Origin: Candidatus Latescibacterota bacterium
Lineage (GTDB): Bacteria > Latescibacterota > UBA2968 > UBA8231
Length of the DNA: 64,000 nucleotides
Direction: 5' to 3'
Assembly (NCBI GenBank): GCA_965215195.1
Contig: CBDCDC010000002.1
Coordinates: forward strand, 288,001-352,000
The notes under the pieces: model-generated
The model's database searches: none
The model's input: the letters and a program-made list of their open reading frames with translations, nothing else
Told to the model about the DNA's origin: nothing
Translations under genes and position numbers: made by a program
Shown here: one piece after another, positions 13,586-34,479 of the stretch
How the letters are laid out: each line of letters opens with the position of its first letter
Numbering within the stretch: the stretch's first letter is position 1

Positions 13586-15568
13586 TCAAAACACAATGCT
13601 CGACACGGCCTTGGAAATCAGCGCCAGCGCAATCGACGACATCCCCACCAAGCCCATTCCGCACGAATAGCCGGCCAACAGAATGGGCGCGTACGCCCGC
13701 CAGCGCGCTTCGCCAAAGCGCTTTTGCAAGTGATAGCGGCCCAGCAATGCGCCGATGAAGTTGGGCAGCAGAAAGTGCGGCCACGCGCCCACGCCGCCGA
13801 TGAAGCCGTAGAACAGGGCGATCGGCCAGCGCACGAGCGCCAGCACACCCAAAATCCCGGCGCTGCCCAGCGCACCCGTGAGCACGTATTCCCAGCGAAT
13901 GATGGTCTCGATCAGCTCGTTGCCGCCCTCGGCGAGGGTTGACTTGGCCCAGAACGCCTGCATGGTGGCGTGGAAGGGCCAAAACTTTTGCACGTAGGGA
14001 TAGGCCGACGAGGGAATCGGCCCGAGCTGCCAGATAAAAGACCAGAACACAAACGAGCAGACGAACATGATTAGCAAGGTTACGCCAGCTAACTTGACGA
14101 TGCTGCCGAAGTGGGTGCGGGTCAGTTCGAGTTGCTTGAAGGCCGCGGCTTCGTAGCCCCACTGGAAGAGCGGGATCGGCGCAAACCACACGGCCGCGCC
14201 CTGATAGCCCGACAGGTAAAAGGAGCCTTCGCGCAAATAGGGGAAAGACGCCCCTTGCGGCGAGCCGGTCAGGCCGATCATGCGCGCCCCGATGTACGAG
14301 TAAATCGGCGTCCACACAAAGCCGAAGAACGCGCTGATCCACCAGGGAAATTCCGGCACCAAATACCACACCAAGACCACGAAGCCGAGCGTGCTCACCG
14401 CCCAGATGCCCAAGGCGAGGGGGATGGGGATGTCGCCGCGCCCCTCGGGTAGCCCTCCGTCGTTGCCCGCGCGCTTAACCCCGCGCAAAGTCCACAGGGT
14501 CTTGCCCACCATGGCAAAACCCATCACGGCCACCACGACCGCCCCGCCAATGGAAAAGCTGAGCCAGAAGTCAAAGGAGTTGGCGATCTGCGTGGGGATC
14601 GCCGACATGCCCGGCTCCCAGGTGTGCAGCACGTCGTAGGCGTAGAGCAGCGGATTGACGAGGACGTTGACGAGGAAGGCCGCGGCAAAGGAGCCGACCA
14701 CGATCCAAAAGGGCAGGACAAAGCCGACCATGACGTGCCCGAGGTCGGTGCCAAGGCCCATGATGCTGGCCGGCAGCATTTCCTTGAGCGAGACGGTCAG
14801 GTCGATAAACGGAATCGGCAGGATGGTCACCGTTTCGGTGAAGAAAATGCCCGAGAGCGTGGGGATGACCACGTAAAACAGCCCCCACACAAGGCCGATA
14901 AAGGCCCCGACGCTAAAGACCTCCCACCGCCAGCCTTGGCTCGGCCCCGAGCTCTCGGCGAGGGCGGTCGCGCCGCCGGCCTGCACCGCGGCCAGCGGGT
15001 ACGGCAGACGCTCAATGTCGTTGGTGATGCGGAACAGCACGTAGCCCAAAGACAGGCTGTTGACCTTTTGCATCGCGATGACGGTCAGCAGCAGGGCAAT
15101 GGGCTTGAGCCAGTCCGGGTGCAAAAAGGAGCGTCCCGCCAAGGCCGGCGAGCCGCGCGGCGGCACCACCCAATCGGGAATGTACTGGTGCAAGCCGTCG
15201 GCTTGGGGCGATTGAATCAAGTACTGGTCCCAGATCAGCCCGCCAAAAGGCCCGCCGAACAGCTCGGCCCCGGTGCCCAACTTGCCGCCCATCACGACCA
15301 AGCCGCCGGCCACCCAGTAGAGAATGATCACTTCTTGGGTGCGCAGGCGCGCAAAGGATCGCTTGGCGATTTCGATGAAGAGGATGAGCGTCACCCACTC
15401 GGCCCCGCCGGCCATGCTCTGGCCGGTCACCAACCCCAAGTAGATGGCCCCGGGCAACATGATGAAGCCGACGAAGAGGGCGGCCCACAAGGTCTTGAGG
15501 TTGAAGCCCGGTTCAAATTCGAGGTCCGCGGGAATCAGTTCGGGCGCTTTTGGGTCGTCTTTTGCCAT
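13586..15568 (-). CDS. OPT-superfamily-like polytopic membrane transporter
   Basis: 660-aa hydrophobic ORF with DIERLPYPLAAV, LPIPFIDLT, GPIPSSAYPY. Confidence 0.65.
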   Translation of the reverse strand: MAKDDPKAPELIPADLEFEPGFNLKTLWAALFVGFIMLPGAIYLGLVTGQSMAGGAEWVTLILFIEIAKRSFARLRTQEVIILYWVAGGLVVMGGKLGTGAELFGGPFGGLIWDQYLIQSPQADGLHQYIPDWVVPPRGSPALAGRSFLHPDWLKPIALLLTVIAMQKVNSLSLGYVLFRITNDIERLPYPLAAVQAGGATALAESSGPSQGWRWEVFSVGAFIGLVWGLFYVVIPTLSGIFFTETVTILPIPFIDLTVSLKEMLPASIMGLGTDLGHVMVGFVLPFWIVVGSFAAAFLVNVLVNPLLYAYDVLHTWEPGMSAIPTQIANSFDFWLSFSIGGAVVVAVMGFAMVGKTLWTLRGVKRAGNDGGLPEGRGDIPIPLALGIWAVSTLGFVVLVWYLVPEFPWWISAFFGFVWTPIYSYIGARMIGLTGSPQGASFPYLREGSFYLSGYQGAAVWFAPIPLFQWGYEAAAFKQLELTRTHFGSIVKLAGVTLLIMFVCSFVFWSFIWQLGPIPSSAYPYVQKFWPFHATMQAFWAKSTLAEGGNELIETIIRWEYVLTGALGSAGILGVLALVRWPIALFYGFIGGVGAWPHFLLPNFIGALLGRYHLQKRFGEARWRAYAPILLAGYSCGMGLVGMSSIALALISKAVSSIVF

Positions 15569-15571
15569 GCG

Positions 15572-17482
15572 CTAGTTTCCGTACAAGGGGTGCCCCTGCC
15601 CGGGGAACCAAATCATATCGACGCAAAAGGACAGGCCAATCGCGGTGAAGTACCCGAGAATGAGGCCAATAAAAAAGGGCTGGGCGCGTTGGTACAGGCC
15701 GATGCCGCCCGAGCGCATGATGGCCCATTTGGCCAGCCAAGAGACGAAGATCGAAAAGACGATGATGGTCATGGGATAGGAGCAGATGCCGACCGGCATG
15801 CCAATCGGGTGCAGGGGCCACCACGAGAAGCGGTAGCGCATAAAGGTCAACAGTCCCATGACGCCCGCGCCACTGACGAGGTGGCCCAGCCGCGTCCAAT
15901 CCGGGGCCTTGAGGTCGATTTTGCGCAGGCTTTCCACGTAGGGCACTTGCGAGCCCGTGCCGAAGATCCACCCGCCGTAGTTGTACGCGCCAAAGGAGTA
16001 GCCCATGTAGAGCGCAAAGGCCATGGAGACCACGAGGGCCACCAGCGCCGAGAGGAGGATGTAGAAGCTGAGCCAGCGGCGATTGCCGCGGATGTGGCCG
16101 GACACCTTGGCGCTGTTGGCCGCGGCGACCATGAAGAAGCCCTTGAGCTCGTGGTGCCAGCCGTAGGACAGCCCGAGGGCGATGTTGCTCTGTGCAGTGG
16201 CGTGCGGCCCGAGCGCGTACCCGACAAAGGTCTGGCCGACCAGCGGTGCGCGGCTGAAGAGCAAGCCGCCCTCCATGATAATGCGCGTGATGCCCACGTA
16301 GAGGACCAAGGTGGCCAAGATGAAGAGCGCGACCGTGGGCGGGTTCATGCCCGCGCGCCACATCCAAAAGGCGATGTAGAGCAGGGCCAGCCCGCTGCCA
16401 AAGACGATCATCCGGTAGGACATTAGCTCGTCGGTGTCGTCGATGTCGGCATCGTTGTACACGGCTTTGCGCCAGATCGCCCCGAGGTGCCCGCGCGCCA
16501 TCCACAGCATCCCAGCGACGAGGGCGATCAGTGCGCCGAAGGACTGCCAGCCGATGGCAGGGTGCCCGAGGGTGTACACGTCGCGGCCGGCAATGGTGTA
16601 GCCAAAGCGGTTGAACAGGCCCTGTTGCAGCATGGTGAGCGCGGTGAAAAACCACATGCTGAACGACACGTCGAGATTGACGAAATACGCGAAGCCGACG
16701 ATGGCCCAGTTCACGTTGGTATTGATGGCGGGAAATTCGCGGCCAATGCGGATGGGGTCGGACAGATCGCGCGGGATGGGTGGAAAGGCCGGGGTAAAGT
16801 ACGCGACCACGTTCCACATAACCATGCAGAAGGGCAGGGCAAAGCCGAACCAAAACGCCTTTTGGCGCACAAAGCTGGGCCAGTTAGAGCCTTGCGGCGG
16901 GGCGATGAGCTGTTGGGGCAATTCCATCAGGGCGAATGGCAAGCGCTCGTATTCGACCCACTGCTTGCGCAGGGCCGCGACCATGCAGTGACACAAAAAG
17001 AAGATGGCCATCACCAAGCTGGTCCACCAAAAAAGCGGCCCGATCCAAGCGCCCCAAGGGATGGATTCGCCGGCCGGCAGGCCGTTGTAGAACCACTTGA
17101 GGGCAATCGCGTCGTTGGGCACCAGCCATTCCTCAATGTACTGCACTACCTTGCTCTGCCACTGATTCTCGGGCGAGGCAAAGTACTGGGGGGCGGCGAC
17201 GACCGCGATCATGTACGTGGAGGTGCCCCAGGTGGGAATTGAGGCCCCGACCAAGGACATGGTGAAGATGAGGCCCAGCTCACTGGTGCTCAGGCCGCGC
17301 ACCTTTAGCAGGGACTTGGCCGCGGCGTTGAGAAAGACCAAGCCGGTAAAGAGAAACACCACGCTCAAGGGCAGGTAGCTGATTGCCCACTGCGAGGACT
17401 TGAGGATGAACATGCTGTACGGGGCCCCGATGTTGATCAGGACCACGAGGCCCAAGCCGATGAGAAAGGCGCGTGGAGTCAC
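15572..17482 (-). CDS. DUF6785/DUF6784-type polytopic membrane protein (OPT-like)
   Basis: LRKQWVEYERLPFAL, WWPLHPIG, C-terminal WLAKWAIMRSGGIGLYQRAQPFFIGLILG. Confidence 0.7.
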   Translation of the reverse strand: MTPRAFLIGLGLVVLINIGAPYSMFILKSSQWAISYLPLSVVFLFTGLVFLNAAAKSLLKVRGLSTSELGLIFTMSLVGASIPTWGTSTYMIAVVAAPQYFASPENQWQSKVVQYIEEWLVPNDAIALKWFYNGLPAGESIPWGAWIGPLFWWTSLVMAIFFLCHCMVAALRKQWVEYERLPFALMELPQQLIAPPQGSNWPSFVRQKAFWFGFALPFCMVMWNVVAYFTPAFPPIPRDLSDPIRIGREFPAINTNVNWAIVGFAYFVNLDVSFSMWFFTALTMLQQGLFNRFGYTIAGRDVYTLGHPAIGWQSFGALIALVAGMLWMARGHLGAIWRKAVYNDADIDDTDELMSYRMIVFGSGLALLYIAFWMWRAGMNPPTVALFILATLVLYVGITRIIMEGGLLFSRAPLVGQTFVGYALGPHATAQSNIALGLSYGWHHELKGFFMVAAANSAKVSGHIRGNRRWLSFYILLSALVALVVSMAFALYMGYSFGAYNYGGWIFGTGSQVPYVESLRKIDLKAPDWTRLGHLVSGAGVMGLLTFMRYRFSWWPLHPIGMPVGICSYPMTIIVFSIFVSWLAKWAIMRSGGIGLYQRAQPFFIGLILGYFTAIGLSFCVDMIWFPGQGHPLYGN

Positions 17483-17712
17483 GTCGGCTGACCGGAGCTA
17501 CTGGGGGCGCGGCGCACGTTTAGCATCGACAGATTGTCTGGAGCGACCAAGTGACCCTTGGCTCGCTTGACCGCGATTTCCCACCCGGTGACAGCGCTGA
17601 CGAAAACGTCATTGTGCGGGTCGGCGATTGCGGCGCGGGTAGCTTCGGCCAGTTGCTGCACATCGGATAGACACCATAAAAAGGTGTGGGTATCCAACAG
17701 TAGCCGCGCCAT
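17479..17712 (-). pseudogene. vapC: VapC PIN toxin, C-terminally truncated
   Basis: RLLLDTHTFLW...VFVSAVTGWEIAVK. Only 77 aa, and the HxDPFD half is missing. Confidence 0.75.
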
Positions 17713-17714
17713 GG

Positions 17715-17969
17715 CTAACGCTTATCTGGGAAAATTTTCGCGTTCTCAATCAGGTCCATGAGCTCTTCATCGGGCTCGTCGAAGTCTGGAGACATCCAGA
17801 TCTTTCCTTCTAGCCCCCCAAGCTGACGTTCCTCCAGCCGCTCCCGATAGGGTTCCAGCCGCAAATACGGCTCGCCGGCCTTGGCGATCACAACTTCTTC
17901 CCCGGCCCAAGCCAACTTGCCTAGGCGCGAAAGTTGCGATTTGGCCTCGTGCATGTTCACCTTCTTCAT
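17715..17969 (-). CDS. Phd/YefM antitoxin
   Basis: VNMHEAKSQLSRL...GEEVVIAKAG...GKIWMSPDFDEP. Confidence 0.88.
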   Translation of the reverse strand: MKKVNMHEAKSQLSRLGKLAWAGEEVVIAKAGEPYLRLEPYRERLEERQLGGLEGKIWMSPDFDEPDEELMDLIENAKIFPDKR

Positions 17970-17983: not shown

Positions 17984-18005
17984 TAGCTAAGTTAAGCTAA
18001 GTCTA
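17984..18005. promoter_or_regulatory. Putative TA operator (AGCTAAGT repeats)
   Basis: TAGCTAAGTTAAGCTAAGTCTA directly upstream of the antitoxin RBS. Confidence 0.45.
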
Positions 18006-21000
18006 TTTTGCTGCCGGCGCCGCGGCAAACGCCTTTTCCACCTCGTCCCGATACCCTTGGCGGATCCCCGGCGACAGGGTGCGCCACACGAGGAATCGCT
18101 TGCGCAGCACATTGAGGAACTTGCGATTCATGCGCTGCCAAGAGGCCACGTCGCCGCTGAGGCGCTCGAGGTGGGTCTCAATTTTGTAGATGTGGTGCTC
18201 GCCGGTGGGAGTCGCTTGCAGGCGCACCTGCTGGCTAATCCCCAAATCGTAGGGTGCCAGCCAAGTGCGCATGGCAATGGCGTAGGACGGCTCCGGCCCG
18301 TCTGCGGCGATGGATAGCTCGATGTCGCGGGCGATGAAGTCGCCGATTGAGCCTTCGCCATAGGCGGCAAAGACCGACTTGAGGTACGCGTACATGCTCG
18401 GCACTTCGGCCCCGCCAACCGTGAAGGGAAAATCAAAGCGCCAGTGGTCGCCGACCGGCGGGGGGAATTGCCACTGCCGCGTCACGTCCGGGACGGCCAT
18501 GTTGGCCGCCAAGCGCGCTGGATACAAGGTCGATAAATAGACCGTGCCGATGACCACCACCGTAGCCCACACGGCCGACAGCGACGAGTAGTTGAGCGTC
18601 AGGCCGGCGAGCAGCCCGTAGTGCAGCACGAACAGATGGGCGATTTGGCCTAGGGCGTAGCCGACCACCGCGCCAAAGGTGGCAAACACTGTGGATTCGG
18701 CCAAGAACAGCAGGCCGATGTGGCTGGGGGCCAAGCCGACGACGCTGTAGATGCCAATTTCGCGCACGCGCTCGTACACGGCCCCCATCATGGTATTGAG
18801 CACGATCAAGGCGGCGATGATCACCGGCACCAAAAGCTGGCCGGCCCCGCTTATTTCGGTGGAGCCGATCGAGCTGTAGGCCACGACGCGATCGCCTTGG
18901 CCGACGAACAGGGTCAGGGCCACCCGCGACATAAAGGACTCCACGCGCTGGATAAATGCTGGGTCGTCCGCGGCCGCGGCAATGGCGATGGAGCGCAGGC
19001 GGCCGTCCATGGCGCGGACGCGCTGGTAGGGCAAGAACAGGGTGTTGACCACTTCGAGGTGGTTGAAGGTCTCGACTGCGGTGGCGGCCAAGGTGCGCGG
19101 GTCCTCGGTGCTCTCGCGGGTGATGAGGCCGGCGTCTTTGACTGTGTCCACGGGCGTTAGGCGCTCGCCATCGAGATCGACGACCTCCTTGAGGGCCGCG
19201 CTGTCGAACAGGCCAATGACTTGGTACTCCTCGCCGTAGAGCGCGATGGTGGCCGCACCCACGTCCGCGGCCCCAATGCCGACGAGCGCGGCCAAGCTGT
19301 CGGGCAAGATGACGGCCTTGTCGTCGCCGGCTGCAAAGAAGCGGCCGGCCGAGATGTGCGCGTCGAGGCCCGTTACTTGAGCTTCGGCCGGCTGTAGGCC
19401 CACCAAGCCGTGCGCGAAACTGGCCGCGCCGGTCGCCGTGGCTGCAAAGTCGATATAGGCCCGTTCGGATTCGACTGGCGACAAGTACCAGGCGCGCGGC
19501 ACGACCAAGGCGCGGTCGCCAAACGCGCTCTGCACGTAGTCCAAGATGGAATCCTGCATGCCGCGCCAAGCGCGGTCGCGAATGAGGCCGCCCTCGTATA
19601 GAGGCGGGGTGTCGCGCGGCAGGCGATAGAAGTCGAGGCTGGACTTGACCGAGGTAAAGGAATTGACGGTAAAGGTCAAAAAGGTCAGGGTCGCGGCCGT
19701 CAGCGCGGTGCGCAGGCGGCGTTTGCCCAAGTTGGAGATGCCCAACAGCACGGCCGCAAAACTCGCGGCCATGCGCCCCACATCGGTCTCGTGCAGGCCG
19801 GCGGCCGCGCCCTTGCGCCGCTGCAGGAGCGCCTTGAAGCGCGCGACGACGATCGCGATGACGAGGACGCCCAAGGCGAGGATGACAAACGCGAGGAAGA
19901 TGATGTACGGCGAGGAACTCAGCTTGAAGGCCGGATGGACGAAGCGCAGGATCAAAAACACGAGGACGAAGATCCCCACAAAGCCGGCGATTTGCCGCCG
20001 CACGTCCGGGAAGCCGAAGAAGAAGCGCTCGCAGAAGAAGGCAAAGGGCAACAGGAGCGCGAAGTAGAAAATCACCGCGCGGACCGCGTCGTTGGCCGTG
20101 GCCTTGACTTGCGGGTAGATACGGGCCTCTAGTCCGAGGGCGCGGCGCACTGCGCGCTGATAGCCGGTGTAATCAAAGGCCGCGAGTTTGTCGCCGGCCG
20201 CGAGCAGGGCCTCCCGCGCCTGATCGTGCATGGCCTGTAGCTGTTCGAGGACAATGCCGTGGCGCACCATTTGTTTGATCCGCGCCTCGTCAATGATCCA
20301 GATGTCGCGGGCCGCCTGCAATGCCGGGTAGGGGATGAGGCCTTGTTCAACCGGAAAGCCCGCGCCTTGGGCCCGCTCAATGGTCGTCCGATCGACGCCG
20401 GCCGGATCGAGCTCGGCGAACAGGGCCGAGTCCGCGTTGGTGAGCATGTAGCGCACGCCGGCGAGCGCGCTCTCGCCGCCAAAGGCACCCTCGCCAGCGA
20501 GAATTTTGACGCGGGTGCCCGGCTCGGCGAACACCACGCCGGCCTGCACCACCCGGTCCTGTACTGCGCTCTGGTTCTCGATGTAGCTGAGGGAAAAGGA
20601 GCGCGGCGGCGCGTCGTTGCTGCCGAGGACGTTGACGCGGTCCATGGCCGCTAGGTAGCGCGGATCGACCACCTCCAAGAAGCTGAGGGCGCGGCAGCGA
20701 AACAGGACCTGCAACATGCGGTTTTCCCACCAGCCGTACGGCTGGGTGCCCGGGTAGGTTTTGTCGCCCTCCTCGCCGAGATCGGGCGCAGAGACGATGC
20801 GGCCGTATTCGTCGAGTTCAAAGGCTTGGATGCGGTTGGCAAAGCGGTTGCGCACAATGTCGAACTTGAAGTACCCGCTTTCGTCCCCGTGCGTGGCCAT
20901 GAGGGTGCGTACGCCGGCCACGGAGTTGGGGCCGGGCTGGAGATAGGTGACGAGCGCGTTGGGCACCGGGGCCTTGGGCACGGCAAAATTCACGTCGCGG

Positions 21001-22595: not shown

Positions 22596-22620
22596 TGAAC
22601 GGAGGCTGGCACCAGACAGC

Positions 22621-22647
22621 AAAAGAGGCAGGCCGCAGCCTGCCTCT
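22621..22647 (-). terminator. Rho-independent terminator
   Basis: Stem AGAGGCAGGC-CGCA-GCCTGCCTCT followed by TTTT on the minus strand, after the gene ending at 22673. Confidence 0.65.
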
Positions 22648-24761: not shown

Positions 24762-27361
24762 CCTCTTCTTTCGGCTGGCCGACCCCCCAAGCGCTCCTCC
24801 TCTTGCCCGACGTAGAGCTCGATGAAGGCAATGGTATTGCTCACGTCTTGGTCGGTGAGGTTGGCAAAGTTGATGTCGTTGACCTGAAAGCCCACGTTGG
24901 ACGTGACGCTGTACCCTAGGTACTGCACCCGGTTGGTGTACTGCACGGTGAACACCTTGCCGATGAAGTCGTCGATGTACTCGGGCGGCAGCGGGTCTGG
25001 GATCGCCTCGGCATTGCGGAAAATTATGGCCTCCACCCCGACCTCAACGCGGCTTCGCGTCAGCACCGGGAACACGGCCGACAGGGAAAAAATTTCGCTT
25101 AATTCGTTGATCTCGAGCAGGACGGTGCGCGGTTGGGTGCGCTTGCGCCACATGTTTTTCCAGCGCGGGATCAAGGTGACGTTGCGCCCAATGGAAAACG
25201 GATAGTCCGCCTTGTTGATCACGCCTAAGAACGCGCTGTCGCGGAGGCGCTCGGCCGCTTGGTCGCGCTGCTTGAAGTGATCGAGGCGGAACTTGTTGGT
25301 AAAGGTCAGGTTGCCGCGGGTGTACTTGTAGCCGACGAAGCTCTGATTGACGATGGTGTTTTCGGTGATTAGGGGGTCGTCAAAAGGCTGCAAGCCGCCA
25401 ATGGAGCCGGGGCGCTGCACCCATTGCAGCAGGTTGTCGGCGATGTCGTCTTCGACGAACTTGAGCATGTGGAAGACCTCGAACTTGCCCGTCCTAGCGA
25501 CATTGCGCACTGCGCTGAGCAACGCGTACGCGGCTGTTGACCGCTCTTCGCCGGCGATCAGCCACTCGCGGTTGCGACCTACGGTGATATTGATGCCCGG
25601 ATAAATCTCAAGGCCTCCGTACGCGTTCCAGCCGCGATGGCCCTTGCGGTAGGGATAGTCGGCCTCGTCGTCGTTTTCAAAGCGATCCACCACGGTGTTG
25701 TGGTTCATATCGACGCCGAAGAGGAAGTCGGGCGGGTCGATGTAGTGGCGCAGGAACGGCTCTTCGTAGTCCGGGGTGAGGTTGGAGTTTTCGTTGAAGT
25801 CCGAGAGCAGGTCGTTGTTTTCGTCGAGCCCGGGGAAGACGGCGTTGTCGCCTGCATCGCCAAAGCGCGGCCAATCCACGAGCTGGTCTTGATCGTCGTT
25901 GTCGTCGATGTACTCGAACCAGTTCTGCCGCTGATTTTCGTAATCCACGACATCGTTTTGGTCGGTGATGTACCCGCGCGTGGTGTACCCGTAGTCCATG
26001 CTGAACACTTCGCCGTAGCCAAAGTAGCGGCCCGTGCGGCGCGTGGCGTTGACAAACCAAGCATCGGCCGTGCGGTCGCTCTTTTTGAGGTTGCTCAGTT
26101 TCTGGATGTTGATGTTGGGATAGCGCTGAAACTGGGTATTGCGCGCAAATTCGCCGCGCACCTCCACCCCCCAGACATCCTCGACGACCAGATCTACGCT
26201 GGCAATTTGGTTGGCCGAGGGCAGCCCATAGTCAAAGCGGACGACGCGCTGGTTGGTGTTGTCGCGCACATTGCCTTCGGCGCGGGTGATCGGCAAAAAG
26301 ATGGGCTGGCCGTTGATATTCGTCTGCAAGTTGGAGGTTATCTCCACTCGGTAGTCATTGGAGAGCACCATGGCAAAGCTGACCTTTTGCACCACCAGCG
26401 GGTCGGGCACTCGGTAGCGGAGGAGGATCGGGGCCTCTTCGAGGGCTTCGAGAAAGCCCTCGCGCTGGCGGCCCCCCTCAATGGTGGGATTAACGGAAGT
26501 CTCTTGGCCATCGACGATCATCTGCGCCGAGAAGAACAGGGCACCGGAGCCATCGCCGGGCGAGTCGTCGGCAATGCGGATGACGATTTCGGTGACGTTG
26601 CCCGAATTCTGGCTGCTGGTCAGCAAGCCGGCGCGCGAGTTTTCCGAGAAATTGCTGCTCGCCGAGCCGAAGTTCGTATTGACATACGTGGCCCCTAAGC
26701 TCATGAAGTCGCCGATTTGGGTAGCACCGCGCAGGCCGATGAAGTTGGTGAAGTCCGTGTCTTGCACCCGGTTGGAACCCTGTACTGCCCGCACGGGCTG
26801 ATTGACGCGCGACAGCAGGACCGTGGTCTCGTACTTGTCAGACGCAAAGTCCCATTGGACGCCGTTGAAGCGCGAGCGGCTGAAGGTCAGCGGGGTCAGG
26901 GTCGTGCGGATCTGATCGCCGATGGTCAGAGCGGAGTAGTACTGGCCCTTGGAGTCTGCGGCTACGACTAGGTTTTGGAAATAAGCGTTGAATTTGGCGT
27001 CTTTGAAGACCGTGCTGCCGAAGGCGAGCGGCTGCTGCTGACGCCACTCGTAGATGCGCCAGCCACGGGTGACCCAGTTGCCGAAAATGTCGTACTGGCC
27101 CGTGCCCTCTAGGTGCGTGGAGACGTAGCGCTGATACGGTTCCTTGGCGTAGTTGGTGTACTTGTAGCCTCCCCAGTGGTAGATGTAGTAGAGATCTTGG
27201 GGCACGTACCACTTGCGCAGGGTTGGGATCAGGGGGTCGAAGCCCTCGATCCTAACCTGCGATGTAGCGCCGCGCTCGCGCCCCGGGGTCGCCGCTTGGA
27301 CGCTGGACGCCGCAACGGCTAGGACCAGCAGGGCAACCCCCCAGAACATAACTTTGTGCAT
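24749..27361 (-). CDS. Large secreted protein, probable outer-membrane protein with Asp-rich Ca-binding-like loops
   Basis: Signal peptide, DDNDDQD / GLDENNDLLSDFNEN / DMNHN motifs, amphipathic beta-strand-like C-terminal third, terminal Phe. Confidence 0.6.
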   Translation of the reverse strand: MHKVMFWGVALLVLAVAASSVQAATPGRERGATSQVRIEGFDPLIPTLRKWYVPQDLYYIYHWGGYKYTNYAKEPYQRYVSTHLEGTGQYDIFGNWVTRGWRIYEWRQQQPLAFGSTVFKDAKFNAYFQNLVVAADSKGQYYSALTIGDQIRTTLTPLTFSRSRFNGVQWDFASDKYETTVLLSRVNQPVRAVQGSNRVQDTDFTNFIGLRGATQIGDFMSLGATYVNTNFGSASSNFSENSRAGLLTSSQNSGNVTEIVIRIADDSPGDGSGALFFSAQMIVDGQETSVNPTIEGGRQREGFLEALEEAPILLRYRVPDPLVVQKVSFAMVLSNDYRVEITSNLQTNINGQPIFLPITRAEGNVRDNTNQRVVRFDYGLPSANQIASVDLVVEDVWGVEVRGEFARNTQFQRYPNINIQKLSNLKKSDRTADAWFVNATRRTGRYFGYGEVFSMDYGYTTRGYITDQNDVVDYENQRQNWFEYIDDNDDQDQLVDWPRFGDAGDNAVFPGLDENNDLLSDFNENSNLTPDYEEPFLRHYIDPPDFLFGVDMNHNTVVDRFENDDEADYPYRKGHRGWNAYGGLEIYPGINITVGRNREWLIAGEERSTAAYALLSAVRNVARTGKFEVFHMLKFVEDDIADNLLQWVQRPGSIGGLQPFDDPLITENTIVNQSFVGYKYTRGNLTFTNKFRLDHFKQRDQAAERLRDSAFLGVINKADYPFSIGRNVTLIPRWKNMWRKRTQPRTVLLEINELSEIFSLSAVFPVLTRSRVEVGVEAIIFRNAEAIPDPLPPEYIDDFIGKVFTVQYTNRVQYLGYSVTSNVGFQVNDINFANLTDQDVSNTIAFIELYVGQEEERLGGRPAERRGWSF

Positions 27362-27431
27362 AACAACTCTCCCTTAAAAGCGTTTTTAGTGGTCGGTGGT
27401 CAGCGCGGTGCGGGGACTGGCCACTAATCCA

Positions 27432-29213
27432 TCAGTACACTACGGCAATGCTCCGCATCTGCGTGGCGATGCCGGCGTCGGTAGCGGCCTTGAGGCGCAG
27501 CAAGTACATACCCGGGGGCACGGTGCCGGCGGCGTCGCGGCCGTCCCAGCTAACTTGGTTGGGACCAGAGCGATCGCGGGCTTGGTAGAGGCGATGCACC
27601 GGCCGGCCGCTCAAGTCGTACACGACGACCTCAACTTCGACCTCGTGGGTCGCCTTGAGCAGGATGTAGTCGAGGGTGATCTGGTCGTTGATGCCGTCGC
27701 CATTGGGCGTGATTACCGCGGACGAGAACGCGACGCCGGTAAAAAGATCGTCGTCGATGCGGGCACTGACGACGAGCGTGTTGTCGGCGACTTGAGCGGC
27801 CGCGTCGCCAAAAGCAACTCGCTGCGGAAACGCATCGGACTGGCTGTCGGCGACCTCGCCGCGAAATTCCGTGCCCGAGACGGTCACCAAGCTGGCGAAG
27901 CGCACGGCGACTTCTTGGCCGCTGCGGGTGATGCGCTCGTCCGGGAAGCTCACCTGTAGGCGGCCCAAAGCGGACGCCGCGGTGAAGTTGTCGAGCTCGA
28001 CGCCATCGACGCGCACCCCCGTGGTGCGGGCGGCAAACGGAGTGTGGATGATCACGGTGTCAAAGCCGCGGTGGCCGCTCGAGACGACCGAGCGCAGGTA
28101 ATAAGTAAATTCGTTCTCCTGCCCGAGGATGGCCGTGGCCGGACTGATTTCGGCGATGACCGAGTCGGCCAGCGCCGGCACCGTGTAGTTGAAGACCACT
28201 GAGTCGATGACGGCTTTGTCGAGCAAGCTGCTCGACAGGAGCTTGAATTGGAACTGGAGATAGCGCCGGTTGTCCGGCGAATTGAGCGGGGATGCGAGGG
28301 GTTCGGCGTAGGGCGGGGACCACGCACTCCAGTCGCGGTCGTTTTCGCGGACCACGCCGGCGTATGAAGGGTCGAGCGTGCGGTCGAAATCCGCGAGGGC
28401 CACTTCGGCCAATTCCCCGGGAATGCCCGTTTGGCGGAAGTAGAGCGAGTCCGTGGCGACAAAGCCGGTCTTGGTGCTGAACTGGGCTTGGGCGCTGCCG
28501 TCGATGCGGCTGTACACATCGACTGGCCCGAAGTTGGCCGCTTCACCGAGATCAATCACTTGCGATATGTACTGGGCAAAGGGCGTGACGCCGACGCCAA
28601 AAACTTCGAGGTCGCCCATCTGGAAGCCGCGTTCGCCCGTGCTGCGCAGCCTAAAAAAGCGCACCTGCGTCGGCGGGAAGCTCAGGTCTAGCTCGGGCAG
28701 GCCGTGCGAGCGGTCTTGTTCGATGAGCGCGTACACGGGGTTGCCGCCGACAAAGTTGAGCGAATCGCCGTCGTTGACGTAAAACTCGTACCCGCGCAGG
28801 GAGCGCTCGTCGTCGTTGAGGACGCCGCGCAACAGGCGGATGCGATGCAGGACGAAAATCGCGCCCATATCGACTTTGAGTTCGGCGCCGTTGGGATTGG
28901 TGTACACGCGCCAGCCCGTGGTGTACTTGCCGTCGATGAGTTCGTTGAGTATCTGGTTGGAGCGCGCCGCGGCCGTGAGCACCGAGGTGGTCGCGCTGCC
29001 GCCGAGCTCCTTGATGCGCGGCAGAATGTTTTCTTCGGGGTCGGCCTCCAGTGGCGAGAGCGTCCCCGCGTCGGTGACTTCGAGTGCGTTGAACACGAGC
29101 GAGTTGCTCTCCCACTCCAGCCCATCGCCGCCTATTTTGAGCCGTTCTGCGGCCGCGGCCGGAGTGCTGCATCCCATCGCTAGAAAGGCTAATGCGAGTG
29201 CGGCACGGGTCAT
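27432..29213 (-). CDS. Secreted discoidin-like + FlgD-Ig protein (paralogue A1)
   Basis: Signal/lipobox, WSAWSPPY...SPDNRRYLQ, ITPNGDGIND, YDLSGR...WDGRD...PGMY, ends IAVVY. Confidence 0.75.
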   Translation of the reverse strand: MTRAALALAFLAMGCSTPAAAAERLKIGGDGLEWESNSLVFNALEVTDAGTLSPLEADPEENILPRIKELGGSATTSVLTAAARSNQILNELIDGKYTTGWRVYTNPNGAELKVDMGAIFVLHRIRLLRGVLNDDERSLRGYEFYVNDGDSLNFVGGNPVYALIEQDRSHGLPELDLSFPPTQVRFFRLRSTGERGFQMGDLEVFGVGVTPFAQYISQVIDLGEAANFGPVDVYSRIDGSAQAQFSTKTGFVATDSLYFRQTGIPGELAEVALADFDRTLDPSYAGVVRENDRDWSAWSPPYAEPLASPLNSPDNRRYLQFQFKLLSSSLLDKAVIDSVVFNYTVPALADSVIAEISPATAILGQENEFTYYLRSVVSSGHRGFDTVIIHTPFAARTTGVRVDGVELDNFTAASALGRLQVSFPDERITRSGQEVAVRFASLVTVSGTEFRGEVADSQSDAFPQRVAFGDAAAQVADNTLVVSARIDDDLFTGVAFSSAVITPNGDGINDQITLDYILLKATHEVEVEVVVYDLSGRPVHRLYQARDRSGPNQVSWDGRDAAGTVPPGMYLLRLKAATDAGIATQMRSIAVVY

Positions 29214-29253
29214 GGCTGTTCCTTTTTGCTATAAGGTGGCAACGCACGCCTCC

Positions 29254-31623
29254 TCAGTAGGCCACCGGCACGATCCGCTGCACCGTCTCGGTCTGGGAGT
29301 CGCCGGCAATTTCGATTTGCACTAGATAGGTCCCCGGCCGCACGAGCGCACCGGTGCCGTCGCGGCCGTTCCAAGTGAAGCGATAGCGCCGTGCGAGGCC
29401 ATCGCCGCTGTCGAGGACGCGCACTTGGCGGCCGGCCAAGTCGTAGATGTGGACCCGGATGGGCCGCGGCGTCACCAGCTTGAGCGCGTCGAATTCAATG
29501 GCCAGCTCGTCGCCGACCCCGTCGCCATTGGGCGTTAGCACGTGCGTCGACAGGACGACGTTGGCCAGCAGGAGGTCATTGACCGGCAGTTGCACCGAGA
29601 CGGATTCGCTCGGCACATCCGCTTTGGCGTCGCCTTGGTCGACGAGCTGGCGCACGTCGGTGCCGAGGTTGCTGTTGCCGAGGAAGAGGTCGAAGCGCGT
29701 CTGGTTTTGGTAAATGGTACTGCTGAACGACAGCTCGATTAGCTGGGAGCGGCGGATTGTGGCCGGTAGATCGACGACAAACCCCTCGGCGACCGCGGTG
29801 ATTGCGGCCTCCACCGGCTCGTCAGCCAACTTCAGGCCAGTGAAATCAACGGGCACGGACGCGGTCATGGTCAGGCGGTTAAAGCCCTGCGAGCGCCCGC
29901 CAAATATCGGCAGGACGAAGTACGTAAAGTCCTTTTTGACGCCCGGTTCAACTTGGCTGGGGAAGACCTCGGCGCGGGTTTCGAGGGCAATGGGATTCTC
30001 CGCGTTTAAGTGCAGGGCATTGAGCGCCGGCACTGCGTTGGGATCGTCCGAAATCAGGCGCAGGTCGAGCTGGACATAGCGGCGCGGCGAGGGCGAACTA
30101 AAGAGCGCGCCCGAAGTTACGTACGGATCGCTCCAGACGCTCCAGTGCGGGCCGACGGAAATCGCGACGTGGGTCGGCCCGCGCAGGCTCTTGGGCGTCT
30201 TGTTCCACTTCCGCTCGGTGATCTCTTTACCCTTCTTGTCGAAGTAGTGAATGTTCTCTACTACTTCATCGCCGGTGCGGCTACGCAGCTCGATGCGCGT
30301 GCCGGGCGGTACGTCGGCGTCCCACTCGACCGAGGTCAGGGCCTTGGCGGCACCAAGGTCGAGGATCGGCGAGGTTAGCTGCAACTCGGCTGGAAAGCCC
30401 GCGCCGTAGATCTGGAACTCGCTAATCAGGGCGAAGAGGCGGTAGGTGCCGTGGGTGCCGCTGCGCTCGCCGCCGTGGCGGGAGGAAGGAAAATAGTGCT
30501 TGATGTAGCGAATTTTTTGCAAGTCGAATTGGTGGTCGAAGTTGCGGATAGTCGTCTCGTTCAGGGGGCTGTCGTCGACAAAGGCGATCTCGTGAAAATT
30601 CAGGGTGCCGTCCGGGGCGATTGAGCCGTCGGAAGCGAGGAGCTGATACCAGAAGAAGTTGGCGTAGCGGCTGCGAATCCGCGACGGGGCCCCGGCCGGT
30701 TCGCCGATGATGCGGATCTGGTCAATCCAGTAATGGGCCCCTAGGTCGAAAATGATGCGATTGAAGATGTCGAAGCCGGTTTGGGTCTGGTGGTAGGTCT
30801 GCATGCCCCAGTTGGTGACGATGTCGCCGTCAACCATGTTCTCGCCGCCGGAGAGCACGGCCTGCAAGTCGGTGATGAGTTCGATGCTGCCGCCGCGCTC
30901 AATGATCCCGAGGGAGATGTTGTCGCCGATGGTGGAGACCGCAATCTCGGCCAAGCCGGCGCCCGCGACGAATTTGGACAGCTCAATGCGAATGATGCGG
31001 ACTAGGCCCGAAGATTCCTTGAACTCGCGGACGGTGCCCTCGACAAAGCCGCCGCCAATGTCGTCCGAGCCGGCCGCGCTCAAGCCCAAGGTGCGCTGGC
31101 GGGGGTCGAGCACGAGCTCGTGGCTCTCGTTAAAGCCAATTCCCTTGGAGAGGCCGTAGCCCAAGGTGCCTTCCACGGGCACGAGGGCGTTGGTAAAGAA
31201 CTGCTCGCCGCTCGACAGCAGGACGTTGAAAAACTCAAAGGGCGGCGCGGCCTCGTCGAAGGAAATGACGATCTCGGAGGCCGTCACCAAGCGGCCCAAG
31301 TCGAGTTCGATATAGGCGTTTTCAATGCCGTCGGCCGGGTCGGGCGACCAGCTAGTGGCCGGGTCGCCATCCATGATGCGGCCAGCGTCGCGGGCGTTGC
31401 TGCCGACGCTGCGGATGCCGCCGCCAAAGTGCTCGGCATTGCGCACCGCGTCGATGTTTTTGCGGACGGGCACGGGCTGGATGCGGCCGGTCGCTTGTAG
31501 TTCCACCGCACCGACTGGGTGCGTCCACTCTTGCCAAGCCGAGCGGGAGTCAAACGAGACCCGCTCGCCCAAGGCGAAAGTGCCCAACGCCATAACGAGA
31601 CATAGTGCGCGAGTGATTGTCAT
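29254..31623 (-). CDS. Secreted discoidin-like + FlgD-Ig protein (paralogue B1)
   Basis: MDGDPATSW, IELDLGR, WSVWSDPY...SPSPRRYVQ, LTPNGDGVGD, ends VPVAY. Confidence 0.75.
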   Translation of the reverse strand: MTITRALCLVMALGTFALGERVSFDSRSAWQEWTHPVGAVELQATGRIQPVPVRKNIDAVRNAEHFGGGIRSVGSNARDAGRIMDGDPATSWSPDPADGIENAYIELDLGRLVTASEIVISFDEAAPPFEFFNVLLSSGEQFFTNALVPVEGTLGYGLSKGIGFNESHELVLDPRQRTLGLSAAGSDDIGGGFVEGTVREFKESSGLVRIIRIELSKFVAGAGLAEIAVSTIGDNISLGIIERGGSIELITDLQAVLSGGENMVDGDIVTNWGMQTYHQTQTGFDIFNRIIFDLGAHYWIDQIRIIGEPAGAPSRIRSRYANFFWYQLLASDGSIAPDGTLNFHEIAFVDDSPLNETTIRNFDHQFDLQKIRYIKHYFPSSRHGGERSGTHGTYRLFALISEFQIYGAGFPAELQLTSPILDLGAAKALTSVEWDADVPPGTRIELRSRTGDEVVENIHYFDKKGKEITERKWNKTPKSLRGPTHVAISVGPHWSVWSDPYVTSGALFSSPSPRRYVQLDLRLISDDPNAVPALNALHLNAENPIALETRAEVFPSQVEPGVKKDFTYFVLPIFGGRSQGFNRLTMTASVPVDFTGLKLADEPVEAAITAVAEGFVVDLPATIRRSQLIELSFSSTIYQNQTRFDLFLGNSNLGTDVRQLVDQGDAKADVPSESVSVQLPVNDLLLANVVLSTHVLTPNGDGVGDELAIEFDALKLVTPRPIRVHIYDLAGRQVRVLDSGDGLARRYRFTWNGRDGTGALVRPGTYLVQIEIAGDSQTETVQRIVPVAY

Positions 31624-31660
31624 AGCCGTGCTCCCTTAGCCCGGGCCGCGGGCCGCGCGC

Positions 31661-33460
31661 TCAGTACGCCAACCCCACCAGCAGCGACCGCTCCTCAGAG
31701 CCAGTATCCGTATCAATGGAAAGCCGCAGGATGTAGAGCCCGGGCGGCGCAATGGTGCCGCTCTCGTCCAAGCCGTCCCAAGTCACGCGCTGCGGCCCGT
31801 TGAGCGCGCCGCTTTTTTGCAAGTGCCGCAGCGGGCGGCCGGCGAGGTCGTACACGATTAGATCGGCGGGCACCTGCGAGAGGGCACGCAGCAAGATATA
31901 GGACACCTGCAGCTGGTCGTTGACCCCGTCGCCGTTGGGGCTGAAGACCGGCGGGTCAGCCTGCAACTCGAGGACGAGCTCTTGGCGCAACGCGCCTTGG
32001 ATGGACAGGCGGTCGGCCTCGGCCTCGGGGGTGGCGTCTCCGGCCACCACGTCTTGGCCGAGTTCGCCGGTCTGGCTGTCGAAAACTTTAGCGAAAAAAG
32101 TGGTGCCATAGACGGTCACCATGGCCTCGAAGCGGATGCGCAAAAGCTGGCCCGACTCGGTCACGCGGTCGTCGGTCAATTGGATGGCCAGCCTGCTCTC
32201 GTCTTGCGCGTCCTCTTCGCTAAAGGACACGGGCGCTCCGTCTAGCTCGACGCTGTTGACCACCGCCTTAAAGGGCGTGCGAATCTCCACGCGGTCGAAT
32301 CCGTCGTTGGCCGGGCCGAAAGTCGAGCGAATGTAGTAGGAGAAGGTGTTGCTCTCGCCGAGGGGGACCGTCGCCGGCGTGACTTCGGCCGTCAGCTCTT
32401 CGGCCAGCGTCGGGACCGAATAGTCAAAGGAGAGCGAATCGACAAGGGCCGACTGGCGCGCGTCCTCGGACGAGAACAACAGGCGGAACTGGACGTAGCG
32501 GCGGTTGCCCGGGGATAGAAGATCGCCAAAGAAATCCTCATAAGGGGCCGACCAAGGGCTCCACTCGTCGATGTTGTCGATAATCGCGCCCTTGTTGGAC
32601 GAGGTCAGATCGTCGTACTCTTCGGCCGCCTCGGGCGAGCCGATCGGCAAGATGGGCTCTTCCTGCCGGTCCTCGCCCTCAAAGACCTCGGTTTTGCGAT
32701 AGTAAATTTTGGGGTCGGGCACCGTGCCCGTGCGCGTCTGCAATACCACGTTGGTCAAGGGGTCGAAGCGGGTCTGCAAGCGAAGTTGGCCGAAGTTGGC
32801 CGCCTCGCCGAGGTCAATGACTTGGGACAGATAGCTGCCGGTGGGCGCGAAGCCATCGCCAAAGACCTCGACTTCCTCGATGATGAACTCTTGGCCCGAG
32901 CGGCTAATTAGGCGGATGAAGCGCACGAACTGGAGGGGGATGTGCGCGTCGATATTCGATTCGCTCTGTTCGAGGTTTGCGCTGACTTGGTTGATGAAGG
33001 CGATCGGCCGGTCCTCGCGCAGTTGCGCGGGGTCGCCGTCGTGAACAAAAAGCTCATAGGCGCGGAGGAAGATGTCGGGGTTGCCCTGAAAGCGAATGCG
33101 GTTGATCGGCAGGATCGCGCCCAAGTCGATGAACATGGAGGTGCCGTCGGGGCGTCGCTCGCGGGTGACGCGCCAGAAGGTCTCGGCATTGCCGTCGGTG
33201 AGCAGGCCGGTCAGATCCTCGCGCGACTGTGGCGAGGAGATGTTGCCACCCCGCCGCTTCAGAGTGAGGATTTCGACGGCATTGGTGGTCGAGTCCACCA
33301 CGGCCGGGAGCAGGCCGGAAGCGGCGGTGGTGAGTCCGGTCAACTCGCCGACGTCGTCCCAGGCAAAGCCAGAGCCTCCCGCGGTCCACACTTCTACGGC
33401 ACCGGCCGCCCTAGCGCCCAACGCAATGCAGATCAACAACTTAAATCGCCATTTGAACAT
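31661..33460 (-). CDS. Secreted discoidin-like + FlgD-Ig protein (paralogue A2)
   Basis: LTDGNAETFW, IDLGA, WSPWSAPY...SPGNRRYVQ, FSPNGDGVND, ends VGLAY. Confidence 0.75.
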   Translation of the reverse strand: MFKWRFKLLICIALGARAAGAVEVWTAGGSGFAWDDVGELTGLTTAASGLLPAVVDSTTNAVEILTLKRRGGNISSPQSREDLTGLLTDGNAETFWRVTRERRPDGTSMFIDLGAILPINRIRFQGNPDIFLRAYELFVHDGDPAQLREDRPIAFINQVSANLEQSESNIDAHIPLQFVRFIRLISRSGQEFIIEEVEVFGDGFAPTGSYLSQVIDLGEAANFGQLRLQTRFDPLTNVVLQTRTGTVPDPKIYYRKTEVFEGEDRQEEPILPIGSPEAAEEYDDLTSSNKGAIIDNIDEWSPWSAPYEDFFGDLLSPGNRRYVQFRLLFSSEDARQSALVDSLSFDYSVPTLAEELTAEVTPATVPLGESNTFSYYIRSTFGPANDGFDRVEIRTPFKAVVNSVELDGAPVSFSEEDAQDESRLAIQLTDDRVTESGQLLRIRFEAMVTVYGTTFFAKVFDSQTGELGQDVVAGDATPEAEADRLSIQGALRQELVLELQADPPVFSPNGDGVNDQLQVSYILLRALSQVPADLIVYDLAGRPLRHLQKSGALNGPQRVTWDGLDESGTIAPPGLYILRLSIDTDTGSEERSLLVGLAY

Positions 33461-33489
33461 AGCGCGTGTCGCCTCTCGCCCCCATAGAC

Positions 33490-33524
33490 AAAATAAGGGG
33501 AGGGGAATCCATTCCCCCTCCCCT
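33490..33524 (-). terminator. Rho-independent terminator/attenuator hairpin
   Basis: AGGGGAGGGGAAT-CC-ATTCCCCCTCCCCT, followed by TTATTT on the minus strand, downstream of the gene ending at 33562. Confidence 0.6.
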
Positions 33525-33561
33525 CGTGAACGTACTTAAGACGAAGACTGCGAAAGTCGGT

Positions 33562-34479
33562 TTAGAGATCTTCGCCTACCAGCGACTTGATTTGGCCCCA
33601 AGAGCTTCCCTCAATCGCTGTGTCTGTGTCCACCTCTTCAATCGCCGTCAGGAAAATGTCGGGCATGCCGCCGCTGTTCATAAACTGCTCGGCCATGCTG
33701 TACTGGGCCTGCCAGAAGAAACCGTTCTCGCAGCACTCCTCCGAGAGCGGATCGTTGCCGTTGGCGTTGAGCCCTTCGTCGGCGTCGTCAACCGAGATCG
33801 ACATGCCAATGGTCTGCTCGGCCGCGAGCGTCCACACCGTGCTGGCGTCTGGGCCGCCGCTGATCGAGATCGGGTCCATGAGCTCGGCGCTGAACTCGTA
33901 GTAGTACTCTTGGCCTTGGTTGACGTGACCGGCCTCCACGAAGTCCGTGTGGGTCCACCAGAAGTTCAGGGCGTCCTGCTCGAAATTGGCCAATGCGCCG
34001 TTGTACATCTGGACGCGCGAAAACTGTTCGGAGAAGCTCAGGCACATCTGGTAGGCCGGCTGCAAGTCTTGGTCGTTGGGTGCCGAGTACGGGCCGCCGC
34101 CTTGATTGTCGGGATCGAAATGCACTTCGCAATTGTCGTCGCGGAAAGTGCAGGCGGGGTTCTTATCGACGATCAGGAAGTCGTCGTGGACGTGAATCAT
34201 GGCGTGAACGCGGTTGTTGGCATCGCTCCAGCCAATGATGAGGTCGATAAACAGGTCATCAGCGTCGTCGGCGCCGCCGGTCAGCGGATTCATGTCTTCA
34301 ATGGTGACCTCAAAGCTGCGATCGACCCAAGCCCAGTCGGCGTTGTCGCCATCGATGGTGGGCAGGGCGTTGCCGGGGATACCCACGGCGAAAAAGAGCG
34401 GTACTTCAGCCGGCTCCTGCGCGAAAGCAGCACCAGCGACGAGCAAAACGCCTAGAGTCAAAGCTAGGACTTTGCGCAT
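33562..34479 (-). CDS. Secreted CBM9/DOMON-like acidic protein with C-terminal SWGQIK motif
   Basis: GAGGAG RBS, signal peptide MRKVLALTLGVLLVAGAAFA, PTIDGDNADW, DDNCEVHFDPD, YYYEF, IGMSISVDDAD, TAIEGSSWGQIKSL. Confidence 0.7.
   Translation of the reverse strand: MRKVLALTLGVLLVAGAAFAQEPAEVPLFFAVGIPGNALPTIDGDNADWAWVDRSFEVTIEDMNPLTGGADDADDLFIDLIIGWSDANNRVHAMIHVHDDFLIVDKNPACTFRDDNCEVHFDPDNQGGGPYSAPNDQDLQPAYQMCLSFSEQFSRVQMYNGALANFEQDALNFWWTHTDFVEAGHVNQGQEYYYEFSAELMDPISISGGPDASTVWTLAAEQTIGMSISVDDADEGLNANGNDPLSEECCENGFFWQAQYSMAEQFMNSGGMPDIFLTAIEEVDTDTAIEGSSWGQIKSLVGEDL

Follow-up and report, generated by a model that had tools for sequence, protein, structure and literature searches.

A Latescibacterota envelope locus joins two recurrent gene modules, a surface-protein and outer-membrane barrel cassette and an FtsX/OPT-like inner-membrane module

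The 21-kb locus described here, a run of ten envelope genes and a toxin-antitoxin (TA) pair, lies at positions 13586-34479 of a 64,000-nucleotide stretch of a Candidatus Latescibacterota genome (assembly GCA_965215195.1, contig CBDCDC010000002.1; 6.13 Mb in two contigs). This whole stretch is called the window, and coordinates are positions within it unless marked as genome positions. The closest described systems include the pairs of type IX secretion system (T9SS) cargo proteins bearing a C-terminal domain (CTD) of type B and PorP/SprF shuttle or anchor barrels, such as SprB-SprF and PG1035-PorP. In the available text of the papers that describe them (PMC9143113, PMC12618676), they share with this locus the position of Ig-like-CTD cargo genes directly beside a barrel gene, the occurrence of many pairs per genome, and adhesin- or lectin-like cargo without enzymes. 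The Sus-type polysaccharide utilization loci (PULs) of Bacteroidota, built on SusC/SusD, also comprise dozens of paralogous loci that combine surface binders with a barrel and often with an inner-membrane permease. Two further groups resemble the inner-membrane proteins of the locus, namely the Type VII ABC and other FtsX-fold permeases (MacB, LolCDE, FtsEX, YtrF) and the OPT family (PF03169). For the phylum itself, the accessible text of a 2015 genome analysis of Latescibacterota assumed import via non-specific porins and ordinary inner-membrane transporters (PMC4454575).

Full-text literature searches, whose coverage excludes subscription journals, returned nothing on DUF6785 and nothing on Latescibacter* together with type IX secretion or T9SS. 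Nothing was found that combines FtsX, the OPT family and M28, or at least three of the terms Latescibacter*, discoidin, FlgD and outer membrane, and none of the literature on Latescibacter* and polysaccharide utilization is about such cassettes by title or abstract start. These searches bore out the statement of a first-pass annotation, made from the sequence alone, that no characterised system of such architecture is known.

Comparison with the rest of the genome and with related genomes revealed that two recurrent modules, a cassette of surface-protein and barrel genes and an inner-membrane module, meet in this locus at a junction specific to its lineage, and that the locus is one of many members of the cassette family. 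We propose, at about an even chance, that these cassettes serve a route of capture and uptake that resembles a PUL yet has no TonB or Sus parts. The minus strand carries all ten genes, transcribed in the order C-F599-F789-F593-B-S-L-M-(TA)-D-O; the widest spacer is that of C/F599 (101 nt), and B and S overlap by 13 nt. The features are as follows.

33562-34479, minus strand: C, secreted CBM9-like protein of 305 residues, first gene of the cassette (Pfam CBM9_1)
33495-33525, minus strand: terminator-like hairpin in the C/F599 spacer, 13-bp G/C stem followed by a T-run
31661-33460, minus strand: F599, discoidin-type surface protein with a T9SS-like C-terminal domain (Pfam F5_F8_type_C, FlgD_ig, CHU_C)
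29254-31623, minus strand: F789, a longer paralogue of the same family (Pfam F5_F8_type_C, FlgD_ig, CHU_C)
27432-29213, minus strand: F593, the F paralogue adjoining the barrel gene B (Pfam and AlphaFold2 model)
24749-27361, minus strand: B, predicted outer-membrane beta-barrel of 870 residues, undescribed family (AlphaFold2 model)
23460-24761, minus strand: S, SurA-like periplasmic lipoprotein or chaperone of 433 residues (weak profile matches)
22673-23437, minus strand: L, lipoprotein of 254 residues and unknown fold; the start is the Met before a lipobox-like LLWGC, read by eye
22624-22647, minus strand: terminator-like hairpin in the L/M spacer, 10-bp stem followed by a T-run
18003-22622, likely ATG at 22595, minus strand: M, giant inner-membrane protein with an M28-like head and FtsX (Pfam)
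17715-17969, minus strand: antitoxin, Phd/YefM-VapB-like (sub-threshold PhdYeFM_antitox, DUF2281 and VapB matches)
17479-17712, minus strand: truncated PIN-type toxin open reading frame (ORF) of 77 residues, overlapping the start of D (PIN, 18.3 bits)
15572-17482, minus strand: D, polytopic membrane protein with DUF6785 and DUF6784 (Pfam; OPT-type fold predicted)
13586-15568, minus strand: O, polytopic membrane protein of 660 residues, OPT-like and a distant paralogue of D (profile comparison)

The ten co-oriented, tightly packed genes and the inserted TA pair all lie where the first-pass annotation had placed them, and they cover the surface, outer membrane, periplasm and inner membrane as it had stated. 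Its family labels stood as well, that is, F5/8-type-C with FlgD_ig/CHU_C for the three F proteins, M28 with FtsX for M, DUF6785 with DUF6784 for D and CBM9_1 for C, and the locus indeed contains no TonB-dependent or Sus part.

The genome holds many further copies of these genes. A tblastn search with the ten proteins (E <= 1e-10, at least half of the query covered, overlaps resolved by score) yielded 124 copies of F, 53 of B, 43 of D and 20 of L, in addition to 12 of C, 9 of S, 6 of M and 5 of O. Under a 6-kb joining rule they form 74 clusters that span 752,793 bases, or ~12% of the 6.1-Mb genome. The F and B genes are tightly linked, with an F gene within 3 kb of 48 of the 53 barrels and a barrel within 10 kb of 97 of the 124 F genes, and the most frequent cassette order is (C)(L) F F F B (S)(D). 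Of the 38 cassettes with a barrel, 16 have a D gene no more than 5 kb away, compared to an expectation of 5.4 +/- 2.0 and a maximum of 13 in 2000 random placements of the 43 D genes. Among the 94 extra ORFs of 20 further F-B loci, we found FG-GAP/ASPIC proteins (8), rotamase-type SurA-like proteins (4), tetratricopeptide-repeat (TPR) proteins, DUF4159 (2) and FGE-sulfatase-fold proteins (2).

The inner-membrane module is recurrent too. Of 80 named loci fetched for their alignment to M, 77 hold M, and 71 of these also carry D, O or both, arranged as M-D-O, O-D-M, D-M or M-O; five of the six M loci without either are contig ends or short contigs. Its association with a barrel depends on relatedness. 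When only M loci flanked by at least 8 kb upstream and 6 kb downstream are counted, a barrel is found in 19/20 when M is >75% identical to the window copy, in 2/3 at 60-75% identity and in 0/30 below 60%. The full order C-F-F-F-B-S-L-M-D-O was recovered in five of the ten fetched orthologous B loci (G131, G132, G161, G111 and G116) and, with one decayed F, in a sixth (G102), the six together representing four genera, over which the junction of M with the cassette is retained at M identities of 63-95%. Three other loci (G134, G104, G150) keep the cassette without M-D-O, three (L052, L053, L055) keep M-D-O without the cassette, and one from another family on a short contig (G030) is arranged differently. 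The related loci come from records titled Latescibacterota and, in some cases, from records titled Gemmatimonadetes or Planctomycetota metagenome-assembled genomes (MAGs). In addition, the genome of the window contains a second, paralogous M module, which follows an L-S pair 14 kb from a B-F-B group. The recurrence of the same gene order in other genera, for which the first-pass annotation had suggested a synteny check, shows that the arrangement is not a product of chance; its idea of one dedicated machine fared worse, as the two modules mostly occur apart.

Both hairpins that the annotation had pointed out are real, and conserved. The L/M hairpin has a z-score of -2.98, none of 200 shuffles folding equally well, and is clear in four of the six orthologous loci that have the spacer (G131, G102, G111, G116), whereas G132 has a weaker form and G161 none that is evident. 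The C/F hairpin has an equivalent in 8/8 orthologous loci with a readable spacer. RNA contigs with 90-95% identity to the window, which come from four studies and as many libraries, jointly cover every part of the locus; being Logan contigs, they report cover and not strand, ends or levels, and gaps in their long-contig cover carry no meaning. One contig joins B, F593 and F789 (25482-31590), and another runs across M and ends at 22602. Over C, contigs start at 33534-33627, and three runs have contig starts or ends at 33466-33556. Contig depth is 148-784 over C (three runs) versus about 16-25 over F/B (runs X2 and X7), although depth and breaks are weak measures here, with DNA carry-over possible. 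Altogether, these data fit a division into three units, C / F-F-F-B-S-L / M-(TA)-D-O, at the conserved terminator-like hairpins.

The same hairpins could instead tune subunit ratios within one transcript, in which case all ten genes would encode a single trans-envelope complex. Their conservation at two gene borders would fit such a complex, as would the co-orientation and short spacers, the gene order conserved in several genera, and the higher contig depth over C than over the downstream genes. We nevertheless consider it quite improbable, since the modules mostly occur separately, including the three cassettes without M-D-O and the three M-D-O modules without a cassette named above, and since the TA insertion between M and D is tolerated.

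The three F proteins share a layout of a hydrophobic N-terminus, an N-terminal F5/8-type-C domain and a C-terminal FlgD_ig/CHU_C region. F5_F8_type_C, FlgD_ig and CHU_C score 30.9, 30.6 and 28.1 bits, respectively, in F789, and 28.8, 32.6 and 27.2 bits in F593 (cut-off 27 for CHU_C, a type B CTD model), whereas all three matches fall under the cut-off in F599 (CHU_C 22.4 bits), which is 36% identical to F593. The AlphaFold2 model of F593, built on an alignment of 37 paralogues and orthologues (predicted local distance difference test, pLDDT, 88.7), is all-beta: two jelly rolls (residues ~23-206 and ~212-344) are followed by a domain of Ig type (~351-485) and, at the C-terminus, by a sandwich (491-593). 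A Foldseek search with this model matched the lectin domain of galactose oxidase, MAM-Ig-FN ectodomains, adhesins and the tail of PorU, and no enzyme fold was among the matches. The F tails score 20.7 and 17.5 bits with TIGR04183 (type A CTD, cut-off 23) and 19.8 bits with TIGR04131 (cut-off 35), and they also match positions about 1000-1090 of the PorU model. Judged by these profile matches, the F proteins carry a putative T9SS-like C-terminal Ig-like domain of CTD type A or B. C, the first gene of the cassette, matches CBM9_1 with 24.0 bits (cut-off 23.4).

The absence of por/spr genes, as first annotated, holds for the locus but not for the genome. SprA (499.4 bits, cut-off 200) and PorU (628.6 bits, cut-off 420) are encoded elsewhere, and the gene next to PorU is PorV-like, at 147.6 bits short of the cut-off of 250. 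The tail region of PorU matches 50 further C-termini in the genome, some of them outside cassettes. SprA is found in 163/168 genomes of the phylum, and in 56/56 genomes of the families f2-f4, in which B is present in 0/56; B is therefore a lineage-specific accessory rather than a core part of the T9SS. PF11751 (PorP_SprF) gave no match genome-wide, with the controls also silent. Given SprA, PorU and the PorV-like gene, the F proteins are most likely T9SS cargo rather than clients of a private path.

Such a private secretion or assembly path, which the first-pass annotation had also considered, would make B a dedicated translocon for F and S its chaperone, with M-D-O energising or feeding the export. 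It would agree with the tight B-F linkage, with the chaperone-like gene inside the cassette, and with the lack of any genome match to the GldL/GldM models (TIGR03517, TIGR03513, PF12081), for which the controls were likewise silent or below cut-off and are uninformative. Several findings make it highly improbable: the T9SS genes are present, in the case of SprA nearly phylum-wide; the F tails resemble the tail of PorU itself, as do more than 50 other tails in the genome, also outside cassettes; and f2-f4 possess SprA and no B. Furthermore, to our knowledge, OPT-type proteins are importers in all cases.

B has no match to Pfam or NCBIfam models, even at E <= 10, and is by the same Pfam search not a member of PF11751. 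Its AlphaFold2 model (pLDDT 78.4; predicted template modelling score, pTM, 0.78; 33 sequences) is a large barrel of about 26-28 long strands, as counted by eye from the DSSP string of the model. It has an extra beta domain at about residues 258-360 and a conserved Asp/Asn-rich loop at about 460-574, whereas the strongly conserved N-terminal stretch (residues 24-99) is unmodelled. Fold searches (Foldseek against the PDB and a wide VIA-align search) returned only generic barrels, namely SlpA, MtrB, LptD and DcaP (Z 14.4), and allowed no family assignment. Homologues among the 120 matches listed are all annotated as hypothetical and have no Pfam domain. A search of the Atlas gave 30 unnamed clusters, the nearest named family being DUF6029 at 0.89, and a profile search of 1.84 billion protein representatives yielded 1172 relatives at E <= 0.001, 423 of them at E <= 1e-30. 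A complex prediction for B (residues 24-870) with the tail of F593 (488-593) scored 0.00, which weighs neither for nor against binding.

Compared to the type B CTD/PorP-SprF pairs, the cassette differs in its barrel, which at 870 residues and ~26-28 strands lacks a PF11751 match, and in its composition, with three cargo paralogues plus C, L and S. Moreover, its copies are far more numerous (53 barrels), it belongs to Latescibacterota and not to Bacteroidota, and the binding of F to B is here a proposal. By analogy with type B CTD cargo on PorP/SprF shuttles, we propose that the F proteins are displayed on or beside the barrel of their cassette.

Display might also be all that the cassettes do. 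The F-B units would then be variable adhesin or coat modules, composed of T9SS cargo and an anchor barrel, for attachment to hosts or particles, and M-D-O would be an unlinked neighbour. We judge this main rival of the capture and uptake route somewhat unlikely, and the evidence on it is divided. The cassettes are enzyme-free, the F folds resemble adhesins and ectodomains, and neighbouring PorP/SprF barrels serve as anchors for type B CTD adhesins according to the available text of PMC9143113 and PMC12618676; in addition, terminator-like hairpins lie between the units, and M adjoins a barrel in just one orthologous lineage. By contrast, D occurs beside cassettes about three times more often than by chance, the junction is kept over four genera at 63-95% identity of M, and the second, paralogous M module likewise follows an L-S pair near barrels. 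A barrel of 26-28 strands is also far bigger than anchoring requires.

A separate observation concerns more distant members of the B family. At genome positions C1:165000-185000 (locus L130), three distant B paralogues of 906-1049 residues and 25-30% identity stand in a row and adjoin an F gene, a 1080-residue TPR protein, DUF4159 and a MotA/ExbB-type proton channel. These neighbours hint that some B-family members may work with a motor.

For the two accessory proteins, sequence comparison gave little. S, first annotated as a peptidyl-prolyl isomerase (PPIase), has no rotamase/PPIase domain detectable in profile searches; it matches EpsD (E 0.0011), SurA_N_2 (E 0.011) and Cbf2 (E 0.03) weakly, and its N-terminus is lipobox-like as read by eye. 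Longer paralogues of S do have rotamase domains. L gave no family match and no PDB match in the sequence search, and is found within 10 kb of 18/53 barrels.

M consists of a PA/M28-like periplasmic head, an FtsX/MacB-type permease module and a C-terminal domain of 160 residues, with 36.6 bits for Peptidase_M28 and 42.6 bits for FtsX (PF02687, cut-off 25.5). In the PDB, the FtsX part matches YtrF (E 2.2e-6), MacB and LolC, whereas the head aligns to the PA-domain M28 aminopeptidases 2ek8 and 6hc6 and to Nicalin. Relative to 2ek8 and 6hc6, and with the M28 metal ligands numbered as we presume them to be, the head retains His-x-Asp, has Glu at the position of the bridging Asp, and shows Gly-His in place of Glu-Glu; these positions are invariant among four paralogues. 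The head of M thus appears to lack the catalytic glutamates and to depart from the M28 catalytic motif.

Like the Type VII ABC permeases, M has an FtsX domain, and much as in MacB one helix precedes its large outer domain and three follow it. It differs from them in an extra N-terminal PA/M28-like head of ~800 residues, in three more helices, in its pairing with OPT-type permeases (the 71 of 77 M loci above), and in the missing ATPase. As first annotated, no ABC ATPase accompanies the FtsX protein: an ABC_tran domain is present neither in the 34 large window ORFs scanned nor in the 62 ORFs flanking seven diverse M loci, although an ATPase may be encoded elsewhere. Those flanks contain unrelated housekeeping or catabolic genes. 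As an aside, the M homologue in a Planctomycetota MAG record (L091, 6656-14990) is an ORF of 2777 residues whose N-terminal part is longer by ~1100 residues, Big_5 Ig-like domains among them.

D matches both DUF6785 (373 bits) and DUF6784 (88.6 bits), whereas O has no Pfam match at E <= 10. A BLASTP comparison of O with D gave nothing significant (E 0.31), whereas hhalign aligned them collinearly over 515 columns with a probability of 85.7% (E 5.4e-6), so that BLASTP was blind to a relation which the profile comparison alone revealed. The OPT model PF03169 scores 27.0 bits (cut-off 25.8) and 18.2 bits at the C-termini of two O paralogues, over its last 100 positions only. Among the Atlas clusters nearest O, which are named peptide transporter, OPT is assigned to 33% and 15% of members, and the clusters nearest the DUF6785 proteins carry OPT on part of their members; we regard both as leads only. 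In PDB sequence searches, O drew nothing but spurious armadillo-repeat entries (0 matched stretches), and D nothing useful. Altogether, O and D are probably distantly related OPT-like permeases, as their size and polytopic nature would also fit. They differ from the described OPT family in missing its model and in having no PDB relative by sequence, and an FtsX-type partner is not a known OPT feature.

A fragment of O also lies elsewhere in the window. At 40028-40273 on the plus strand (genome C2:328028-328273), ~25 kb from the intact gene and beside transposases, an 82-residue stretch is 91% identical to O residues 345-426 and looks like a relic of duplication or rearrangement.

DUF6785 itself is widespread: it occurs in 154/168 genomes of the phylum, and a first look gave some 20-88 candidates in each genome of f1-f4. 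Ten D loci of two closed genomes from barrel-less families (G052 and G080; L150-L159) contain 71 ORFs, and their neighbours are catabolic: PhyH (7), sulfatase, heparinase-like, M60, M55, M81, GGT, amidohydrolase, solute-binding and SSF proteins. This gene content fits a role of D as an importer within catabolic loci. Genes for PhyH-family dioxygenases stand strikingly often beside DUF6785, also at locus L137 of this genome and at L097.

In the capture and uptake route that we propose, the three lectin-like F paralogues would leave the cytoplasm via Sec and cross the outer membrane by the T9SS of the genome, using their C-terminal Ig-like domains. They would then be held at the surface, on or beside the 870-residue barrel of their own cassette, with the SurA-like chaperone S, the lipoprotein L and the abundant CBM9-like C as helpers. 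A glycan or glycopeptide ligand captured at the surface could cross the outer membrane, perhaps via B, and D and O might import it using the proton gradient. M would act as their ATPase-less FtsX-type partner, with an M28-like head devoid of catalytic glutamates.

The comparison with Sus-type PULs, in which the first-pass annotation had seen a possible analogue, holds in part. The paralogy (53 B, 124 F and 43 D) and the excess of D near cassettes are in favour, and FG-GAP/ASPIC proteins recur near F-B loci. However, none of the ten proteins matches Plug, TonB_dep_Rec or SusD, the binders are predicted T9SS-type cargo and not lipoproteins, and the F-B loci, unlike Sus-type PULs, contain no degradative enzymes, so that a PUL-like logic needs enzymes encoded elsewhere.

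Several points weigh against the capture and uptake route. Glycoside hydrolases, lyases and peptidases number 0 among the 94 extra ORFs of the 20 F-B loci, and neither profile nor fold searches found a plug, a TonB box or a transporter-family match for B. O and D of the window do not reach the OPT model PF03169 even at E <= 10, and the GldL/GldM models are silent in the genome, with the controls as given above. D is equally expanded in f2-f4 (56/56) although B is absent there (0/56), and none of the 30 M modules less than 60% identical to the window copy has a barrel within 10 kb. Furthermore, the conserved terminator-like hairpins part C, the F-B-S-L unit and M-D-O from each other.

A bolder version of the proposed route would make it a third, TonB-independent nutrient-capture architecture of diderms. 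Lectin triplets delivered by the T9SS would sit on a 26-28-strand barrel that serves as uptake channel and feeds proton-driven OPT-fold permeases, in some loci together with an ATPase-less FtsX-type mechanotransmitter bearing a pseudo-peptidase head, and the ~50 cassettes per genome would be the equivalent of Sus-type PULs in this phylum. We consider this version unlikely.

New here are the scale of the cassettes in a near-closed genome, the phylum-wide tallies of T9SS and DUF6785, the statistical link of D to the cassettes, the conserved terminators and the conserved junction of both modules. Latescibacterota are widespread and uncultured, and in this genome ~12% of the sequence lies in cassettes around an unannotated barrel family, alongside 43 genes of an uncharacterised permease family. 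Should the cassettes serve capture and uptake, they would represent a new solution for selective outer-membrane import, the T9SS would gain a nutritional docking role outside Bacteroidota, and a function would be provided for DUF6785/6784 proteins and ATPase-less M28/FtsX proteins. If they are only adhesins, they would still equip these host- and particle-associated bacteria with a surface repertoire that is variable and very large.

The TA pair between M and D is found only in part of the same-genus orthologous loci and is therefore an insertion. The PIN match of its toxin ORF spans profile positions 2-47 of 120, and RNA-library contigs of related strains have 219 and 327 different letters at 17475-17527. 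The ORF of the window therefore seems to derive from a longer one by deletion and now adjoins the start of D.

The locus is flanked on both sides by genes of mobile or defence type. Directly downstream of O lie a helix-turn-helix protein with an M78 domain (spr1629-like; 12281-13570, minus strand) and a retron Ec67-family reverse transcriptase/endonuclease (9867-11573, minus strand; 713 bits, cut-off 450), in a stretch of low G+C content (0.45-0.52) that is probably a defence islet. On the other side, between the C gene and more envelope genes, comes a low-G+C stretch (35003-39249) that encodes two DDE transposases (37048-38145 and 38308-39249) as well as a tyrosine recombinase (35003-36070). 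The retron, integrase and transposases raised the possibility that the whole 21 kb is a mobile island, which was discarded because the gene order is ancestral across genera. The envelope genes beyond the transposases (40794-62509) extend the repertoire of the locus. Besides TPR proteins, they encode one more protein of the F type (40794-43214), a protein with the FGE-sulfatase fold, three of the FG-GAP/ASPIC kind and two SurA-like proteins with rotamase domains, and also a di-haem cytochrome c peroxidase that ends in a FlgD_ig tail (44177-45811).

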